A DNA stretch of 39,336 nucleotides from a phage: the sequence record PV991107.1; one strand, written 5' to 3'. Shown here in pieces: positions 7,398-30,754 of this stretch. A program made the translations under genes and the position numbers. Each line of letters opens with the position of its first letter. Position 1 is the first letter of the stretch. Under the pieces are notes generated by a model. It was not told where the DNA came from and did not search any database. It worked only from the letters and a program-made list of their open reading frames with translations.

Positions 7398-10300
7398 ATG
7401 GCGACTCGTGGTATTCGCAATAACAATCCGGGTAACATCCGGGTAAGTAAGGACCAATGGGAAGGAATGACTGGAGATGATGGTGCATTCGTCACCTTCG
7501 ATAGTCCAGAGTCTGGCGTCCGAGCTTTAGGTAAAAACCTGCTGTCCTACGGTCGCCGAGGTTATGACTCCATCGAGAAGATTATCAACCGATGGGCACC
7601 TCCTAATGAGAACGACACTAAGGCTTATATCGACTCAGTGGTGGCTGCAACTGGTATTCCAGCTACCCAGAGTCTCGACCTATCGGACCCTGACACCCTG
7701 TCTTCTCTGGCTCAAGCTATCAGCTTCCATGAGACAGGCTCCCGGTACGACCCTGAAGTCTATCAGAAGGGAGTCGCACGAGCACTCAATGGCATTAGCC
7801 CAAAGACTCCACCAGTAAGCGCTAACGTATTTGACGCACTCACGGAAGGACTCAAGGCTAAACCTAAAGTAGCTCTTGGTGAGAACCTTCCGACCGCTGC
7901 TGGTCTGAATATTGAGGGTCAAGCACCTGAAGCTCCCAACGAATCGTTCGGTGAGATGTTCTATACGGCTACTGGAGAGACCATGCAGGAACGAGAGGAC
8001 CGCTCTACGTGGTTCGGTTTCGGTGCTGCTACAGAAGCTGAAGTGAAGAACTCTATGGTAGGCGTGGCTATCCGCGCTGGTCAGACCGAGGACTCACTGG
8101 ATGTCATTGGCGATGTGTTTAACCCTACCAGATGGAACAACCATAAGTGGACTCGCGAGGAGCTGGACCAGATTCGTAACGCTGGGGTTCTGCCTCAGTA
8201 TTATGGAGTCATTACTGGTGGGTCTCCTCAGAACCTGACCGAGCTTATTAACTTGGCTCTTGAGAACCAGAAGTTGGACCAAGAGAAGGCCAAGGCTGGG
8301 ACTGGTGCTCAGTTAGCTGCTGGTGTGATTGGCGCTGGTGTAGACCCTCTGACATACGTTCCTATCGCTGGACAGGTTGGTAAAGGCGGTAAGTTGGTCA
8401 ACAAGATGTTCACCGTGGCTGCTCAATCTGGAGCACTGGCTGGTGTGTCCGAGATGGCCCGTACCTCAGTGGCTGGTGGTGATGCTCATGTGGCTGAAGC
8501 TATCCTTGGTGGTGCTCTCTTTGGTGGTGGTATGACTGCTATCGCTGATGGGTTAGGCAGAGCCTTGGGTCGCAACACTAATGAGTTTGCTGGTCCAGCT
8601 ACACGTCTGGAAGCTCGTGAGACCGCTCGTAACGTTGATGGTCAGGACCTGTCTCGTCTCCCTATTCAGGAAGGTGAGCAGACCTTTAGTCATCAAGGCG
8701 TTAAGTTCGCTGACGTTCCGAATGAGCCGGGTAGTGTACGACTGGAAGATGGTTCAATCCTGATTGGTGAAAACCCTCTGAACCCTAAGACACGTCAAGT
8801 CTTTGACGAAGTGATTGAGCCAGAACGTGCCGCTGCTGGTGTGAACCTTGGTGGGCTGACTGAGATTGGCCTGAAGCTGCTTCGGTCAGAGAACCCTGAG
8901 ATTCGTGGAGTCGCTGCTGACTTAGTGCGTTCACCAACTGGTATGCAGTCAGGGGCCTCAGGTAAAATCGGGACCACTGCGTCAGACGTATTTGAGAGAC
9001 TTCGTGCTGTGGACCATCGGTTCTACAACGACATCGACGACGCGGTTACTGAGGCGCTCAAGGACCCATACTTCCAGACAGCATTCTGGCGAGACTCTGG
9101 CGCATTCCGTCAGGACATCTACCAGCGTGTGTCTATGGCTATTGAAGACGGAAGTGGGAACCTGAAGGCTGAACTGACTCCGGGAGAACTGAAAGTATAT
9201 GACCTGCTGAAGAACCAGTTTGACGCCAAGCGTGAGATGATGGAGAACCCGGCGATGTTTGGTCGTCCAGACGCTCAGTCTATCTTTCCGGGTAGCCGCT
9301 TCAAGGGAACCTACGTCCCGCATGTGTATAGCAACCAGATGAAGGAGCTGTACATCAAGGAGCTTGGGAGTCCAGAGGCACTACAGGAGGCCATCAAGAA
9401 GTCATGGTTGACCAGCTATGCGTCTCGACCTGAGGTCAAGAAACGTGTGGACGAGGCACTCTTAGAGGCTGACCCTACGTTGACTCCAGAAGGACTTGCG
9501 GCTGCGGTCGATAAGTACGCCAACGATAAGGCTTATGGTATCTCTCACACCGAGCAGTTCGAGCGTTCATCCGTAATGGAAGAGAACATCAATGGTCTGG
9601 TTGGTCTGGAGAACAACAGCTTCCTTGAGGCTCGTAACCTGTTCGATAGCGATATGTCAATCGTCCTACCTAACGGTCAGACCTTCAGTGTCAACAACCT
9701 GCGTGAGTGGGACATGGACAAGATTGTCCCGGCCTACAACCGTCGAGTTAATGGCGATATTGCTATCATGGCTGGTACAGGCAAGACCACGAAGGATATG
9801 AAGGACTTGGTTGAGACCATGATGAACAAGGCTGGGGATGACGGTAAGTTGAAAGGTGAAGTATCTACCTTACGTGACACCCTGAAGATTCTCACTGGTC
9901 GTGCTCGACGTGATGGTGCTGATGATGCTGCCTTCGCTACCGTGATGCGCACGATGACAGACCTATCGTTCTTCGCTAAGAATGCCTACATGGGTGTTCA
10001 GAACTTAACGGAGATTGGTGGTATGCTGGCTCGTGGCAACGTTCGTGCAATGCTGCATGGAGTCCCAATTTTCCGTGACCTAGCCTTCCGTAACAAGAAG
10101 GTTGGGGCCTCAGAGATTAAGGACCTGCACAATGTTATCTTCGGTAAGGAACTGGATGACTCAATCCGTCCGTCTAAACAGGATGTCATTGACCGTCTGC
10201 GATCTTACAGTGACCTCGGTCGTGGTACAGCTACAGCTCTGGGGACTGCCAAGTATTACACTGGCGAACTTGCAGTACGCTCTCCGTTCACTAAAGTCCT

Positions 10301-11285
10301 CAACGGTACGACCAACTACCTGTTAGATGCTGGACGTCAAGGCTTCCTGTCTGACATCGTGGAGCATAGCCTGACTGGTAGTAAGCGTAAGTTCGATGAC
10401 CGCTGGCTTAAGACCGCTGGTATCTCTGACGAGCAGTGGAAGGGCATTAAGTCCCTCATCCGTGAGTCAGTGACTCGTGGTCCAGACGGGAAGTACACCA
10501 TCAAGGATAAGAAGGCGTTCAGTCAGGACCCAAGGGCTATGGACCTATGGCGTATGGGTGACACCATCGCCGATGAAACGTTACTCCGTCCTCATAAGCT
10601 GTCCAACATGGACGCCAAGGCTTATGGTCCTCTCGCTAAGACTGTCCTTCAGTTTAAGAACTTCGTCATCAAGTCCATCAATGGTCGAACCATGCGAACA
10701 TTCTATAACGCCACGAAGAACAACCGAGCGATGGACGCTGCACTGTCTACTGTGATGTCTATGGGTCTGGCTGGTATCTACTACATGGCTCAGGCGCACG
10801 TCAAGGCTTACGCTATGCAGGACGGTCGAGACCGAGATTATCTCAAGCAAGCTCTGGACCCAACGATGATTGGCTATGCGGCCCTGTCACGTAGTTCACA
10901 TCTGGGTGGACCACTTGGGGTAGCTAACATTCTAGGTGGCATCGCTGGGTATGAGGACACTAAGATGCTCCGTTCGTCTATCCTCCCGCGTTCACCTACA
11001 GAGAAACCCGAACGTGCCATCTCATATGGCGCGGCTACAAGTGACCCTGTGATGAATGTCGTTGGTAACTTCTTGGAGCAGGTCCCGGCTTTCGGCTATG
11101 CTGCTAACGTTGGCGCTTCGGCATACAACTTGGCTGGCTACCTCAAGGCTGATACTCGTGTCAACGAGCGTGACTACATGACCGGGATGTATAATACGTT
11201 CCGTGAACTGGTTCCGAACGACCCGATTACTCAGAAGTTGCTACTGGGAACGTTTGAGGAGCAAGGTATCCACATCAAGGACTAA
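7398..11285 (+). CDS. Internal virion protein C/D (T7 gene 16 homolog) with a non-T7-like N-terminal domain
   Basis: ORF-track frame 7380-11285 trimmed to ATG after AAGGAG; from about residue 200 onward many blocks match T7 gp16 as recalled (TRWN..W..EEL, GAGVDPL.YVP, RLEARETARN, RSPTGMQSGASGK, GTYVPHVY, ENNSFLEARNLFDSD, LDPTMI..AALSRSS). Confidence 0.9.
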   Translation: MATRGIRNNNPGNIRVSKDQWEGMTGDDGAFVTFDSPESGVRALGKNLLSYGRRGYDSIEKIINRWAPPNENDTKAYIDSVVAATGIPATQSLDLSDPDTLSSLAQAISFHETGSRYDPEVYQKGVARALNGISPKTPPVSANVFDALTEGLKAKPKVALGENLPTAAGLNIEGQAPEAPNESFGEMFYTATGETMQEREDRSTWFGFGAATEAEVKNSMVGVAIRAGQTEDSLDVIGDVFNPTRWNNHKWTREELDQIRNAGVLPQYYGVITGGSPQNLTELINLALENQKLDQEKAKAGTGAQLAAGVIGAGVDPLTYVPIAGQVGKGGKLVNKMFTVAAQSGALAGVSEMARTSVAGGDAHVAEAILGGALFGGGMTAIADGLGRALGRNTNEFAGPATRLEARETARNVDGQDLSRLPIQEGEQTFSHQGVKFADVPNEPGSVRLEDGSILIGENPLNPKTRQVFDEVIEPERAAAGVNLGGLTEIGLKLLRSENPEIRGVAADLVRSPTGMQSGASGKIGTTASDVFERLRAVDHRFYNDIDDAVTEALKDPYFQTAFWRDSGAFRQDIYQRVSMAIEDGSGNLKAELTPGELKVYDLLKNQFDAKREMMENPAMFGRPDAQSIFPGSRFKGTYVPHVYSNQMKELYIKELGSPEALQEAIKKSWLTSYASRPEVKKRVDEALLEADPTLTPEGLAAAVDKYANDKAYGISHTEQFERSSVMEENINGLVGLENNSFLEARNLFDSDMSIVLPNGQTFSVNNLREWDMDKIVPAYNRRVNGDIAIMAGTGKTTKDMKDLVETMMNKAGDDGKLKGEVSTLRDTLKILTGRARRDGADDAAFATVMRTMTDLSFFAKNAYMGVQNLTEIGGMLARGNVRAMLHGVPIFRDLAFRNKKVGASEIKDLHNVIFGKELDDSIRPSKQDVIDRLRSYSDLGRGTATALGTAKYYTGELAVRSPFTKVLNGTTNYLLDAGRQGFLSDIVEHSLTGSKRKFDDRWLKTAGISDEQWKGIKSLIRESVTRGPDGKYTIKDKKAFSQDPRAMDLWRMGDTIADETLLRPHKLSNMDAKAYGPLAKTVLQFKNFVIKSINGRTMRTFYNATKNNRAMDAALSTVMSMGLAGIYYMAQAHVKAYAMQDGRDRDYLKQALDPTMIGYAALSRSSHLGGPLGVANILGGIAGYEDTKMLRSSILPRSPTEKPERAISYGAATSDPVMNVVGNFLEQVPAFGYAANVGASAYNLAGYLKADTRVNERDYMTGMYNTFRELVPNDPITQKLLLGTFEEQGIHIKD

Positions 11286-14180: not shown

Positions 14181-14440
14181 CGCAGATGGACTTAGAGAAG
14201 TTCCTCTTAATGCTAGATACTGAACGTGCTCGACTCATGCTGCAAGACTTGCGGGATGACACTAAGCGTTCACCTCAGCTTTACAACGCCATTGAGAAGC
14301 TACTGGCTCGTCACAACTTTGTGTTAAGCAAGGTGTCTGTGGACGAGAAGACGCTGGCTGATATGGAGGCCCTGAACGCAGAGTACGATAAGGTGCTTTC
14401 AGCGACTGAGGATAATGACACCGGGTATGGTGTTCAATAA
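14177..14440 (+). CDS. Terminase small subunit / DNA maturase A (T7 gene 18 position)
   Basis: 87 aa (T7 gp18 89 aa); start overlaps holin stop (ATGA); synteny. Confidence 0.65.
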   Translation: MTQMDLEKFLLMLDTERARLMLQDLRDDTKRSPQLYNAIEKLLARHNFVLSKVSVDEKTLADMEALNAEYDKVLSATEDNDTGYGVQ

Positions 14441-14444
14441 GTGT

Positions 14445-14490
14445 TAGACTCAAGGTCATTACTATATGTAGTGGCCTTTATGGTTAACAC
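14445..14490 (+). promoter_or_regulatory. RNase III-like processing hairpin (R18.5-like), member of a 4-copy motif family
   Basis: TAGACTCAAGGTCATTACTATATGTAGTGGCCTTTATGGTTAACAC; shares GACTCAAGGTCAT...GTGGCCTTTATG core with sites at 19084, 23271, 30712. Confidence 0.5.
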
Positions 14491-14541
14491 TAACTAGTGG
14501 AGGCGACTCTACGTGAAATCTGATAAACCGGGAGGGCAACT

Positions 14542-17812: not shown

Positions 17813-17975
17813 CATAGGTCCTACAACCTACAGTCCTACAACCATAGGTCCTACACCTACAGTCCTACAACCTACAGTCCTACAACCTACAGTAACAACC
17901 ATAAGACACTCACATCCTACAGTCATAGACCTACAGTTAATAGACACAAAGCTATAGACTTAAGGTCACAGACAT
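17813..17975 (+). repeat. Array of about 10-12 degenerate 8-15 bp tandem repeats (CCTACAGT / CCATAGGT / CTTAAGGT)
   Basis: CATAGGTCCTACAAC CTACAGTCCTACAAC CATAGGTCCTACAC CTACAGTCCTACAAC CTACAGTCCTACAAC CTACAGTAACAAC ...; analogous to the CCTAAAG arrays next to the T7 terminal repeat. Confidence 0.8.
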
Positions 17976-23249: not shown

Positions 23250-23272
23250 CCTAAACTATCACTATAGGATTA
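23250..23272 (+). promoter_or_regulatory. Phage RNAP promoter (phi1.1-like)
   Basis: CCTAAACTATCACTATAGGATTA; consensus -16 to +2. Confidence 0.8.
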
Positions 23273-23312
23273 GACTCAAGGTCATGACTCAAAGTCGTGG
23301 CCTTCATGATTA
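23271..23312 (+). promoter_or_regulatory. RNase III-like processing hairpin (R1.1-like)
   Basis: TAGACTCAAGGTCATGACTCAAAGTCGTGGCCTTCATGATTA. Confidence 0.5.
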
Positions 23313-23342
23313 ACCCTAACTCATTCAATCAGGAGCTACACC

Positions 23343-26242: not shown

Positions 26243-26397
26243 CTGAGGTTGAGAAGAAGTACATCGTGGAGCTTGAGGGACGCGTTCAGTCCTTCGAGGT
26301 TCCGTTGTACGCAAAGTCTCTTGAAGAGGCTACCCTGAAGTCCCAAGAGTATGAGGACGCTGGTTTTGTGGTCGGTCGGATTCGTCCTGAGGCCTAA
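26239..26397 (+). CDS. Host RNA polymerase inhibitor (T7 gene 2 / Gp2 homolog)
   Basis: 52 aa; ..[14 protein letters not shown]......[10 protein letters not shown] matches T7 Gp2 (..SFEVPIYAETLDEA......AGFEVTRVRP) as recalled; below ORF-track cutoff. Confidence 0.75.
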
Positions 26398-26415
26398 ACT
26401 ATCACTGTAGGACAG
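26393..26415 (+). promoter_or_regulatory. Variant phage promoter (phi2.5-like) with G at -3
   Basis: CCTAAACTATCACTGTAGGACAG; single mismatch to consensus in the TATA element. Confidence 0.55.
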
Positions 26416-26454: not shown

Positions 26455-27153
26455 ATGGCTAAAGAGCAACTGAAGACTTTCACCACTCCGGTAGCTGGTA
26501 TCGTTGAGCCTTACGCATGGCTGAACAAAGCAGACACTAAGTTTAACGAGCGTGGTGAGCATAAGGTTAACCTGACATTCGACCTGAGCAGCCCGAAGGT
26601 CCGTAAGATGATTGATGTCTTACAGAAGATTCACGACGATGCGTATGCGAAAGCACTTGCAGACCACGAGAAGAACCCACCTCAGGTTCAGCGTGGCAAG
26701 AAGCCTATTGAACCACGAGAAGGCGACATGCCGTGGATTGAGAATGGTGACGGTACTGTTACCATGAAGTTTAAATGCTTCGCGTCTTACCTGAAGGATG
26801 GTAAGTCAGAGCCTATCGTATTACGGTTCTACGACACCGATGCTAAGTTAATCCGTGACGTCCCGAATATTGGCGCTGGCTCCAAACTGAAGGTCAAGTT
26901 TAAAGTCCTTCCGTTCAAGTGGAACGCTGCGACTGGTGCAAGCGTTAAGCTCCAGCTTGAGTCCTGCCTTCTGGTAGAACTGAAGGAGTGGAAAGGCGAT
27001 GGTGCTGGTGGCGATGGTGGCTGGGGTGATGATGAAGACCTCGGTACTGGCTACAAAGCGTCAACCGATGGTGACTTCGGGTCTGACGACTTCAGTGACG
27101 ATGGTTGTGATGGCGATGACGACTCCAACTCTGGTGGCGATTACGACTTCTAA
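26455..27153 (+). CDS. Single-stranded DNA-binding protein (T7 gene 2.5 homolog)
   Basis: 232 aa (T7 gp2.5 232 aa); acidic C-terminal tail ending ..DDSNSGGDYDF (C-terminal Phe as in T7). Confidence 0.92.
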   Translation: MAKEQLKTFTTPVAGIVEPYAWLNKADTKFNERGEHKVNLTFDLSSPKVRKMIDVLQKIHDDAYAKALADHEKNPPQVQRGKKPIEPREGDMPWIENGDGTVTMKFKCFASYLKDGKSEPIVLRFYDTDAKLIRDVPNIGAGSKLKVKFKVLPFKWNAATGASVKLQLESCLLVELKEWKGDGAGGDGGWGDDEDLGTGYKASTDGDFGSDDFSDDGCDGDDDSNSGGDYDF

Positions 27154-27605
27154 TGGCCCAATGGTCTGCAAAACGGGGGCACTCTGTGGGTGCCTACCGC
27201 TCTGGACTTGAAGCCAAGAACCAGCAGTGGCTGGAACAGAACGGCGTCAAAGCGGAGTACGAAAGCCATTATATCAACTATGTGATTCCGGCTTCCGACC
27301 ACAAGTACACACCAGACTTTATCCTTCCTAACGGTATCATCGTGGAGACCAAAGGTATCTTCGATAGTGATGACCGTAAGAAGCACCTTCTGGTACGAGA
27401 ACAGCACCCAGAGTTAGACATTCGGTTCGTGTTCTCAAGTTCCCGCTCCAAGTTATACAAAGGGTCTCCGACCACGTATGGCGCATGGTGCGAAAAGAAC
27501 GGCTATAAGTATGCCGATAAGTTCATCCCGGTTGAGTGGCTTCGAGAGGCGACTGTACGTCTGCCTTCAGGTATCCTCATCCCCAAGAAGAAAGGAGTTA
27601 AGTGA
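27153..27605 (+). CDS. Endonuclease I, Holliday-junction resolvase (T7 gene 3 homolog)
   Basis: 150 aa; ..VIPAS.H.YTPDF.LPNGI.VETKG....DDRKKHLL.REQHPELDIR.VFSSS..KLYKGSPT.YG.. closely matches T7 endonuclease I. Confidence 0.95.
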   Translation: MAQWSAKRGHSVGAYRSGLEAKNQQWLEQNGVKAEYESHYINYVIPASDHKYTPDFILPNGIIVETKGIFDSDDRKKHLLVREQHPELDIRFVFSSSRSKLYKGSPTTYGAWCEKNGYKYADKFIPVEWLREATVRLPSGILIPKKKGVK

Positions 27606-28075
27606 TGACTCAGAAATATAGACTTAAAGTTAGCATCTACGGGTGGCCTAAAGGTACTATCGTCACAAAATGTGCGAAAGACCCTGTACCAGTGCCTGGA
27701 CTTGTTCTGGTGGAATCCACTGAGCGTGGCCTCTACAAGCACGGAGCAGCGGGGAATAACAGTCAGCCTGACGGAATGTGGGGGGCATGGGTTTCAAATG
27801 AATATCTTGAGGAAATTGTAGAGGATAAACCTCAAGTCCTGCCAGCCTCAAGCGTCCCTCCTGTCACCGTTAAACGTGAAGTCCTGACCATCGACAAGAT
27901 TGGTGTAGGCCAGACGTTCATCGTCCACGGGAAGCCTGAAGAAGTTTACGTGAAGATTAGCAACTCACACGTCTTCAACCATAAGCGTCTCCAGATGCAC
28001 ACCACGGACGCACAGCGCTTCACCCAGCACCTGAATCTAGTGGTCGTAGAATTGGTGGTGTACAATGGTAAGTAA
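27602..28075 (+). CDS. Hypothetical protein (157 aa) inserted between endonuclease I and amidase
   Basis: ORF track; ATGA-coupled to gene 3; 157 stop-free codons; no T7 gene at this position. Confidence 0.55.
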   Translation: MMTQKYRLKVSIYGWPKGTIVTKCAKDPVPVPGLVLVESTERGLYKHGAAGNNSQPDGMWGAWVSNEYLEEIVEDKPQVLPASSVPPVTVKREVLTIDKIGVGQTFIVHGKPEEVYVKISNSHVFNHKRLQMHTTDAQRFTQHLNLVVVELVVYNGK

Positions 28076-28523
28076 GGTACAGTTCAACCCACGGTCCCGG
28101 ACTGACGCTATCTTCGTTCACTGTTCGGCTACCAAGCCAGAGATGGACATCGGGGTAGAGACCATCCGTATGTGGCACAAGCAGCAAGGATGGCTGGACG
28201 TAGGCTACCACTTTATCATCAAACGTGATGGCACTGTGGAAGAGGGTCGCCCGGTCAATGTCGTAGGGTCACACGTTAAGGACTGGAACTCCAAGTCCGT
28301 AGGCGTCTGCCTTGTAGGTGGAATTGACGCTAAGGGCAAGTTTGAAGCTAACTTCACTCCGGCCCAGATGAATTCACTGCGCAACAAGCTGGCTGACCTG
28401 AAGGCCCTGTATCCTCAGGCAGAAATAAAAGCACACCATGATGTAGCACCTAAGGCGTGTCCAAGTTTCGACTTGCAGCGCTGGCTATCTACCAATGAAC
28501 TGGTAACTTCCGACCGTGGTTAA
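28065..28523 (+). CDS. N-acetylmuramoyl-L-alanine amidase / T7 lysozyme (gene 3.5 homolog)
   Basis: 152 aa; ..TDAIFVHCSATKP...WHK.QGWLDVGYHFIIKRDGTVE.GR...VGSH.K..N..S.GVCLVGGID.KGKF.ANFTPAQM.SLR......AHH.VAPKACPSFDL.RW...NELVTSDRG nearly collinear with T7 gp3.5. Confidence 0.95.
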   Translation: MVSKVQFNPRSRTDAIFVHCSATKPEMDIGVETIRMWHKQQGWLDVGYHFIIKRDGTVEEGRPVNVVGSHVKDWNSKSVGVCLVGGIDAKGKFEANFTPAQMNSLRNKLADLKALYPQAEIKAHHDVAPKACPSFDLQRWLSTNELVTSDRG

Positions 28524-28547: not shown

Positions 28548-28763
28548 ATGATTAAACTTATCGAATTTCTTGGTCGTCTGGTGGTGCGTGGTTATCGTCG
28601 TGCTGCGGTTATGGAACGAAAGGTAGAAAAGAAGACTGCTGACAGTGCGGCTGATGCAGCTGCTCTGGCTGACAAGCTGACCATCGCGTCACTGGAAGCT
28701 GGCATGAAGGCACGTCAAGCTGACACCAAAGCTGACCAGTTGGCTCAGTTCTTCAAAGCCTAA
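28548..28763 (+). CDS. Hypothetical Ala-rich coiled-coil protein (71 aa; T7 gene 3.8 position but not HNH-like)
   Basis: ORF track; SD AAGGAG; no HNH motifs. Confidence 0.45.
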   Translation: MIKLIEFLGRLVVRGYRRAAVMERKVEKKTADSAADAAALADKLTIASLEAGMKARQADTKADQLAQFFKA

Positions 28764-28781
28764 ACTATCACCTTAGGGATG
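28759..28781 (+). promoter_or_regulatory. Degenerate phage promoter-like site before gene 4 (CC-T at -4/-3)
   Basis: CCTAAACTATCACCTTAGGGATG; upstream half perfect, TATA element altered. Confidence 0.35.
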
Positions 28782-28808
28782 GGACAATAAGTCCTGTCCC
28801 TTTGTTCG
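28781..28808 (+). other. Hairpin plus U-tract at the 5' end of the gene 4 leader
   Basis: GGGACA-ATAAGTCC-TGTCCC followed by TTTGTTCG. Confidence 0.4.
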
Positions 28809-30543: not shown

Positions 30544-30708
30544 TTGCTAAGAAAACTTAAAGCTCGCTACCATCGGTTCATGTACAAATGGTGGAGTGAT
30601 GAAGCAACCTGCCTGTCCAACATTCTGGGAGACCAGAGGTTCGACTCTAAGGCATGGAAGAAAGCTAACCGGAAGTTTATGTATCACTTCTTGCGTACAG
30701 ACTTCTAG
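30544..30708 (+). CDS. Small basic hypothetical protein (about 54 aa, TTG start) between primase-helicase and DNA polymerase
   Basis: ORF-track frame 30511-30708 begins inside gene 4; trimmed to TTG preceded by AAGGAGG. Confidence 0.3.
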   Translation: MLRKLKARYHRFMYKWWSDEATCLSNILGDQRFDSKAWKKANRKFMYHFLRTDF

Positions 30709-30711
30709 GTC

Positions 30712-30754
30712 TAGACTCAAGGTCATTCACATCGAGTGGCCTTTATGATTAGAC
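30712..30754 (+). promoter_or_regulatory. RNase III-like processing hairpin (R4.7-like)
   Basis: TAGACTCAAGGTCATTCACATCGAGTGGCCTTTATGATTAGAC. Confidence 0.5.

Follow-up and report, generated by a model that had tools for sequence, protein, structure and literature searches.

The gene that lies between the genes for endonuclease I and the amidase in the phage genome analyzed here (sequence record PV991107.1, 39,336 nucleotides; hereafter the window) is the homolog of gene 3.2 of phage K1F. Its product, gp3.2, is predicted to consist of two SH3-like small β-barrels connected by a Pro-rich flexible linker. Sequence comparisons indicate that the C-terminal barrel is constant across the genus Kayfunavirus, while the N-terminal barrel behaves as an exchangeable cassette. 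As to function, we favor, with a probability of roughly one in three, a reading in which gp3.2 is not an enzyme but a binder or adaptor that works at the phage-host interface while the infection is in its DNA-metabolism phase.

The window is the genome, in circularly permuted form, of a K1F-like phage of the T7 group (genus Kayfunavirus). Over its right half, nucleotide identity to phages IME177 and pO2 is 96-97%, and gene 3.2 is found at 27.6 kb in the window versus 9.7 kb in K1F. The original prediction had drawn attention to an extra stop-free ORF of 157 codons at this place, and the frame 27602-28075 on the plus strand indeed contains 157 codons, counted from a GTG and followed by TAA. GTG 27602 is in frame with gene 3.2, yet it is not the conserved start in the 16 homologous loci that were compared. 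All 16 instead share ATG 27605, and the gene 3.2 protein is therefore 156 residues long. The resulting coding sequence (27605..28075, plus strand, including TAA) is based on the sequence, the comparison of starts and the match to PHROG 16385. The ATG is preceded, at a distance of 7 nt, by the Shine-Dalgarno sequence AAAGGAG (27591..27597, plus strand), which is located within the end of gene 3 and is also present in the Kayfunavirus loci compared.

Gene 3.2 overlaps both of its neighbors, namely gene 3, coding for endonuclease I (27153..27605, plus strand; Phage_endo_I, Pfam PF05367, E 2.8e-81), and gene 3.5, coding for the amidase/T7 lysozyme homolog (28065..28523, plus strand; Amidase_2, Pfam PF01510, E 1.2e-16). 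At the upstream junction (AAAGGAGTTAAGTGATGACT) the gene 3 stop codon TGA (27603-27605) overlaps ATG 27605 by 1 nt (TGATG) and GTG 27602 by 4 nt (GTGATG). A true ATGA overlap does occur in some homologous loci, where gene 3 is one codon longer. The coupling to gene 3 that had been proposed thus stands, but not in its literal ATGA form. At the downstream junction, gene 3.2 extends over the ATG of gene 3.5 (28065) by 11 nt, in line with the overlap originally described. Both neighbors are overlapped in all of the Kayfunavirus loci examined. Translation of gene 3.2 is coupled on its upstream side to that of endonuclease I and on its downstream side to that of the amidase. The arrangement in T7 had also been described correctly: gene 3 (10257-10706) abuts gene 3.5 (10706-11161) without any gene 3.2, so that the ORF is indeed extra relative to T7.

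The length of the ORF proves little by itself, because the minus (non-coding) strand of the window by chance holds four stop-free segments of at least 157 codons. These segments, and a literature search that found no experimental evidence of expression, would be consistent with a chance ORF or with carry-over of an annotation. However, more than 220 phages have kept the frame together with its start and Shine-Dalgarno sequence, ω values of 0.11-0.49 are accompanied by many synonymous changes, and AlphaFold2 (AF2) predicts confident folds. It is because of this conservation (relatives, ω, Shine-Dalgarno sequence and start) that we count the ORF as a gene; the non-gene reading is effectively refuted and its probability is close to nil. 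Lack of conservation of the frame among related phages had been named in advance as the observation that would speak against the gene, and the opposite was found: a tblastn search with the gene 3.2 protein matched 221 phage records. The block of genes 3, 3.2 and 3.5 was detected by nucleotide search in 226 records, so practically every phage with this block has gene 3.2. Judging from these searches, gene 3.2 is a core gene of Kayfunavirus, present in essentially every record, and the ORF of the window is its protein-coding representative. The notion of a variable insertion has accordingly to be narrowed: it does not hold for the gene as a sporadic insert (221 versus 226 records), but does hold for the first ~73 codons.

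The closest database match of the protein is to phage vB_EcoP-R1 (98.1% amino acid identity), and the identity to K1F gp3.2 is 75.8%. With K1F gp3.2 the window protein shares the slot between genes 3 and 3.5, the overlap of its start with the stop of gene 3 and the two-module architecture, and the two alleles differ mainly in the N-terminal module. PHROG 16385 matches with an E-value of 2.7e-93 over residues 1-156 of its 157 profile positions, and PHROG 15211 matches residues 87-156 with an E-value of 5.4e-40. Both profiles are labeled 'unknown function', while the two GenBank entries for K1F carry the labels 'gp3.2 protein' (CAJ29361 in AM084414) and 'unknown' (DQ111067). The gene family is therefore already known, being catalogued as gp3.2 and present in more than 200 deposited genomes.

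That the protein was not recognized at first is borne out by the family searches, as no characterized family was matched in Pfam, NCBIfam, PADLOC or PDB sequences. Neither the whole protein, nor either of its domains, nor eight other N-terminal modules produced a match in Pfam at E≤10, SH3-clan families included, or in NCBIfam. PADLOC-DB, a library of defense systems rather than of counter-defense proteins, yielded 0 families at E≤1, and PDB sequences gave no match in either single-query or profile searches. A protein search returned 255 proteins at E≤0.001, which among the matches listed come mostly from contigs of ~40 kb. The exhaustive profile search of 1.84 billion (1.84e9) representatives collected 18 clusters at 50% identity, all of them belonging to the gp3.2 family except for one weak match to the N-terminal region. 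The exception, P0166 (E 1.3e-7), is a surface protein of 1767 residues in which SH3b-like repeats were matched. No cellular relatives were detected in 185,579 bacterial and archaeal species represented by one genome each. On this evidence the gp3.2 family is tiny and strictly phage-borne. The literature on gp3.2, on Kayfunavirus anti-defense, and on RNA-seq and proteomics offered only 'hypothetical protein' table entries, and no record or paper that we found assigns a function.

Structure prediction, which had been suggested as a check on the ORF, points to two SH3-like barrels. The AlphaFold2 model, based on an alignment of 27 sequences, contains two β-rich domains with pLDDT values of ~66-90 (residues 1-73) and ~75-84 (residues 91-146), and the pLDDT of residues 74-90 between them is below 50. 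When modeled alone, the C-terminal domain has a pLDDT of 84.7 and a pTM of 0.69. The predicted folds are five- or six-stranded barrels that superpose on SH3 or SH3-like structures. We accordingly divide the protein (all coordinates on the plus strand) into a K1F-type N-terminal SH3-like barrel (residues 1-73, 27605..27823), a Pro-rich linker DKPQVLPASSVPP (residues 74-86, 27824..27862) and a C-terminal core domain, predicted to be a six-stranded SH3-like small β-barrel (residues 87-156, 27863..28072). According to pLDDT, column entropy and ω, the linker is predicted to be disordered but is conserved. A Foldseek search against BFVD retrieved uncharacterized phage proteins only, several of which likewise appear as tandem small barrels. 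We also looked for traces of internal duplication, but hhalign comparison of the K1F-type N-module with the C-domain gave a probability of less than 6%.

The two barrels differ in their distribution. Translation of the homologous slot in 28 loci revealed a constant C-terminal stretch of 70 residues preceded by differing N-termini. In half of these loci (14/28), including that of Dev2 gp3.2, the N-module is missing altogether and the proteins are only 74-76 residues long. The K1F-type N-module, the one found in the window, occurs in 55 of the 221 records. Other types include the SEA1f/IMM-002-type, the Enterobacter-type and the CR8-type, with further ones in the metagenomic proteins P0160, P0164 and P0165 and several more in a divergent lineage of Providencia phages. 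The linker is common to the K1F-, SEA1f-, IMM-002-, Enterobacter- and P0160-type modules. Two N-modules in tandem are present in P0156. In P0153, the constant domain is fused to a module that phage PSTCR2 encodes as an ORF of its own, although the contig is only 551 bp long and has to be treated with caution. No common ancestry of the modules was detected by hhalign, the probability being less than 6% for the K1F-type module against both the SEA1f-type and the Providencia-type. These comparisons show that the N-terminal barrel is an exchangeable cassette: recombination puts any of at least eight mutually unrelated modules in its place, leaves it out or places two modules in tandem. Separately, we noticed that the middle of the metagenomic protein P0157 (157 residues) matches an alternative frame of the N-module (window 27672-27821, frame +3); this protein is almost certainly a frameshifted assembly and no real variant.

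The boundaries of the cassette are fixed. When the DNA of the window is compared with that of phages carrying other modules, similarity ends at 27607-27614 and resumes at 27824-27830 (at 27883 for the linker-less types). The exchange takes place between the 3' end of gene 3 and the linker, both of which are conserved, and the linker is the right-hand recombination joint. Since similarity stops and resumes at fixed breakpoints, we infer that the end of gene 3 on one side and the linker with the C-domain on the other can serve as homology arms. The composition of the cassette also stands apart, as GC3 in the N-module of the window is 0.43 versus 0.55-0.69 in the neighboring genes and in its own C-domain.

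The three segments are also distinct in the strength of selection, which we estimated for 24 distinct alleles by pairwise Nei-Gojobori and tree-based counting; column entropy was computed over 117 proteins. From the N-module through the linker to the C-domain, ω decreases from 0.49 to 0.23 and 0.11, and mean column entropy from 1.12 to 0.49 and 0.20 bits. Synonymous changes are abundant and all three ω values are well below 1. The N-module has a conserved core (GWPxGTIVTKC, DP, LVE, YKHG and QPDGMWGAW) and hypervariable residues (9-12, 28-34, 38-43, 48-52 and 64-67) that evolve at about the neutral rate. Diversifying selection on the N-module was considered and dropped, as in SLAC-like counting over the 24 alleles no site survived correction for multiple testing (the best one, site 64, had a nominal P=0.023). 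What we claim instead is that the surfaces of the N-module are relaxed or variable. Between the window and K1F, dS is saturated in the N-module and equals 0.10 in the C-domain, which argues for a mosaic history. On the tree of 24 alleles, 90.8 synonymous changes over 42.6 sites were counted in the C-domain and 227.5 over 47.8 sites in the N-module, a rate per site ~2.2-fold lower in the C-domain; this could reflect either different genealogies after recombination or an additional constraint at the nucleotide level.

The 74-residue gp3.2 of Cronobacter phage Dev2 and the proteins of many Salmonella and E. coli Kayfunaviruses (PHROG 15211) are ~77-80% identical to residues 87-156 of the window protein, and Dev2-type genes have the same position and coupling as in the window. 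They lack the N-module and the linker entirely, which shows the C-barrel to be an autonomous core unit. A more distant comparison is provided by Studiervirinae of the PSTCR2 type from Providencia (P0121-P0154). In these phages a gp3.2-like gene directly follows endonuclease I and its product has the same C-domain signature and variable N-modules, but is only ~30-40% identical and has a different linker, WYDEKSAMRE. Despite this divergence, 13 residues (Y, SNSHVF, QMH, T and RF) do not vary from the Kayfunavirus to the Providencia-type lineage, and all of them fall within the 25 residues Y115-F139. The invariant columns of alignments A2 and A3 define the signature Y115-x3-S-N-S-H-V-F-N-x4-Q-M-H-T-T-x3-R-F139 (27947..28021, plus strand), and the window protein carries this family signature, Y..SNSHVFN....QMHTT...RF, at residues 115-139. 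The confinement of the invariant residues to this region marks a functional surface on the constant barrel. Taken with the selection estimates, these alignments show the C-terminal barrel to be under strong purifying selection and to carry an invariant polar patch, SNSH...QMHTT...RF.

Such a patch might suggest that the C-domain binds a ligand or catalyzes a reaction as a minimal unit, for example by soaking up a nucleotide immune signal like a sponge or through a site resembling that of a Ser/His hydrolase (S-N-S-H, Q-M-H-T-T, R). The invariant polar residues (two His, two Ser, Asn, Gln, Thr and Arg) are concentrated on two adjacent hairpins, and the placement of one His where a strand begins and of another on the strand that follows is reminiscent of the His-His pair in NlpC/P60 enzymes. 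We consider this explanation very unlikely. The arrangement expected of NlpC/P60 or CHAP enzymes, a catalytic Cys on an N-terminal helix together with a His and a third polar residue, was not found. In the adaptor reading that we prefer, no catalysis is proposed, and the same patch would be a docking surface.

The Providencia-type phages are also informative about which of the two linkages is conserved. The adjacency of the gene 3 stop and the gene 3.2 start is kept in both lineages. In six Providencia-type loci the endonuclease I stop is still overlapped, whereas one or two small ORFs precede the amidase. As the adjacency to the amidase is lost in these loci, the conserved linkage is with gene 3 and not with gene 3.5. 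An extra ORF of 112-118 residues follows the gp3.2-like gene in Providencia-type phages (L004 1705-2058, PSTCR2; L053-L057), and four of these six loci additionally have an ORF of 79 residues. From the 117-residue ORF, the initial ~66 residues recur in P0153, fused to the gp3.2 C-domain. Because of this recurrence, small accessory modules appear to have a landing pad in the slot that follows gene 3.

The loss of linkage bears on the possibility that gp3.2 is an auxiliary of the amidase or of lysis, that is, an SH3-like protein that would aid or regulate gp3.5 through peptidoglycan binding or through tuning of the interaction between lysozyme and RNA polymerase. This possibility draws on two analogies, one with the SH3b domains that bind cell walls and one with the standalone SH3 protein (DUF7244) in the lysis modules of T1-like Drexlerviridae (PMC13164509). 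Like gp3.2, the DUF7244 protein is small, has an SH3 fold and comes from phages that infect Gram-negative bacteria, where its gene adjoins that of a cell-wall hydrolase. However, the role in lysis on which the possibility is modeled has itself only been proposed (PMC13164509), and neither DUF7244 nor SH3b families matched in Pfam even at E≤10, although the copy of Pfam used may lack DUF7244. Moreover, no signal peptide is apparent on reading of the sequence, and gene 3.2, unlike the DUF7244 gene of the T1-like lysis modules, belongs to the class II replication region, outside the holin/spanin lysis cassette. Taken together with the adjacency lost in the Providencia-type lineage, this makes a role in lysis highly doubtful.

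A phage-RNA-polymerase promoter-like repeat, CTAAACTATCACTGTAGGA (26394..26412, plus strand; repeat families D1/D2, at least eight copies in the window), is located 5' of gene 2.5 and is likely the start of a transcription unit that comprises genes 2.5, 3, 3.2, 3.5 and 3.7. The next copy of the motif (CTAAACTATCACTATAGGA) occurs at 28760-28778, before gene 4, and a search for promoters or terminators inside gene 3.2 found none. Going by position only, gene 3.2 is probably a class II (middle) gene co-transcribed with 2.5, 3, 3.5 and 3.7.

Another possibility is that gp3.2 is an accessory of DNA metabolism. Its basic C-barrel would bind DNA or modulate endonuclease I or SSB, and coupling would ensure that it is made in step with gp3. 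However, the gp2.5/gp3 machinery is the same in T7 and other Studiervirinae, which manage without gp3.2, the net charge is only +2 to +4, no nucleic-acid-binding family is matched, and at least eight interchangeable N-modules would be unexpected in a housekeeping cofactor. We therefore consider such a role possible but unlikely.

Several other elements were noted in the window. About 11 promoter-like sites with the core CTAAACTATCACTATAGG(A/G) are present on the plus strand (4006, 11282, 16999, 19931, 23251, 24973, 26394, 28760, 35024, 37851 and 38847); this family of predicted sites defines the transcription units of the phage. Directly downstream of the 28760 site and before gene 4, a G+C-rich hairpin followed by TTTGTT (28781-28800) could be either a leader stem-loop or a weak terminator. 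A repeat of ~50 nt (TTAGACTCAAGGTCAT...GTGGCCTT(T/C)ATG(G/A)TTAAC) occurs at 14439-14495, 23265-23321 and 30706-30751, one copy being placed directly after a promoter; these repeats might represent conserved leaders or sites of RNase III-type processing. A ~15-nt unit (GTCCTACAACCTACA) is present five times in tandem at 17818-17902. In T7, short repeat arrays are found near the terminal repeats. Given the circular permutation of the window with respect to K1F, the array may, by analogy, mark the region beside the physical end of the genome. In the K1F annotation (AM084414, 1-20000), no homologs of T7 genes 0.7, 4.5 and 5.9 are listed, and gene 5 (DNA polymerase) is annotated as a join of two pieces around gp5.3.

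[quoted passage not shown] Nip is a protein of 279 residues from a temperate phage of a Gram-positive host and also has an HU-like dimerization domain (PMC11984713). [quoted passage not shown] No sequence relationship between them was detected, so that Nip serves by analogy only as an example of a tandem SH3-like phage protein that inhibits defense by binding.

If gp3.2 is an adaptor of this kind, the constant barrel would use its invariant patch to dock on a partner that is conserved either across Enterobacterales or across these phages. A second specificity, variable between strains and directed for example at a host factor or a defense protein, would come from the exchangeable N-module, whose surface loops evolve in an almost neutral manner. 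The idea of host takeover or anti-defense is compatible with the swapping of modules and with the relaxed loops of the N-module; the family searches, the site-wise counting and the literature search yielded nothing that supports it directly. A more specific version, which we regard as decidedly unlikely, holds that gp3.2 is an undescribed modular counter-defense or host-takeover adaptor, composed of a constant, minimal effector/docking barrel of 70 residues and of shuffled, unrelated SH3-like heads. In that version the Ser/His/Thr/Arg patch would either engage a host hub that is conserved or capture a small immune signal. Recombination of cassettes would retarget the barrel to strain-specific host factors, and the slot that follows gene 3 would be a landing pad dedicated to such modules.

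We did not find in the literature a dissection of gp3.2 into a core barrel of 70 residues with a polar patch and a swapped N-terminal cassette. In therapeutic K1F-like phages, this dissection makes gp3.2 a well-defined and cheap target for deletion and module swapping, and the search for a determinant of host range or counter-defense is narrowed to a cassette of 220 nt. Should the adaptor reading be true, gp3.2 would represent a compact, naturally occurring scaffold with which a phage effector could be retargeted.
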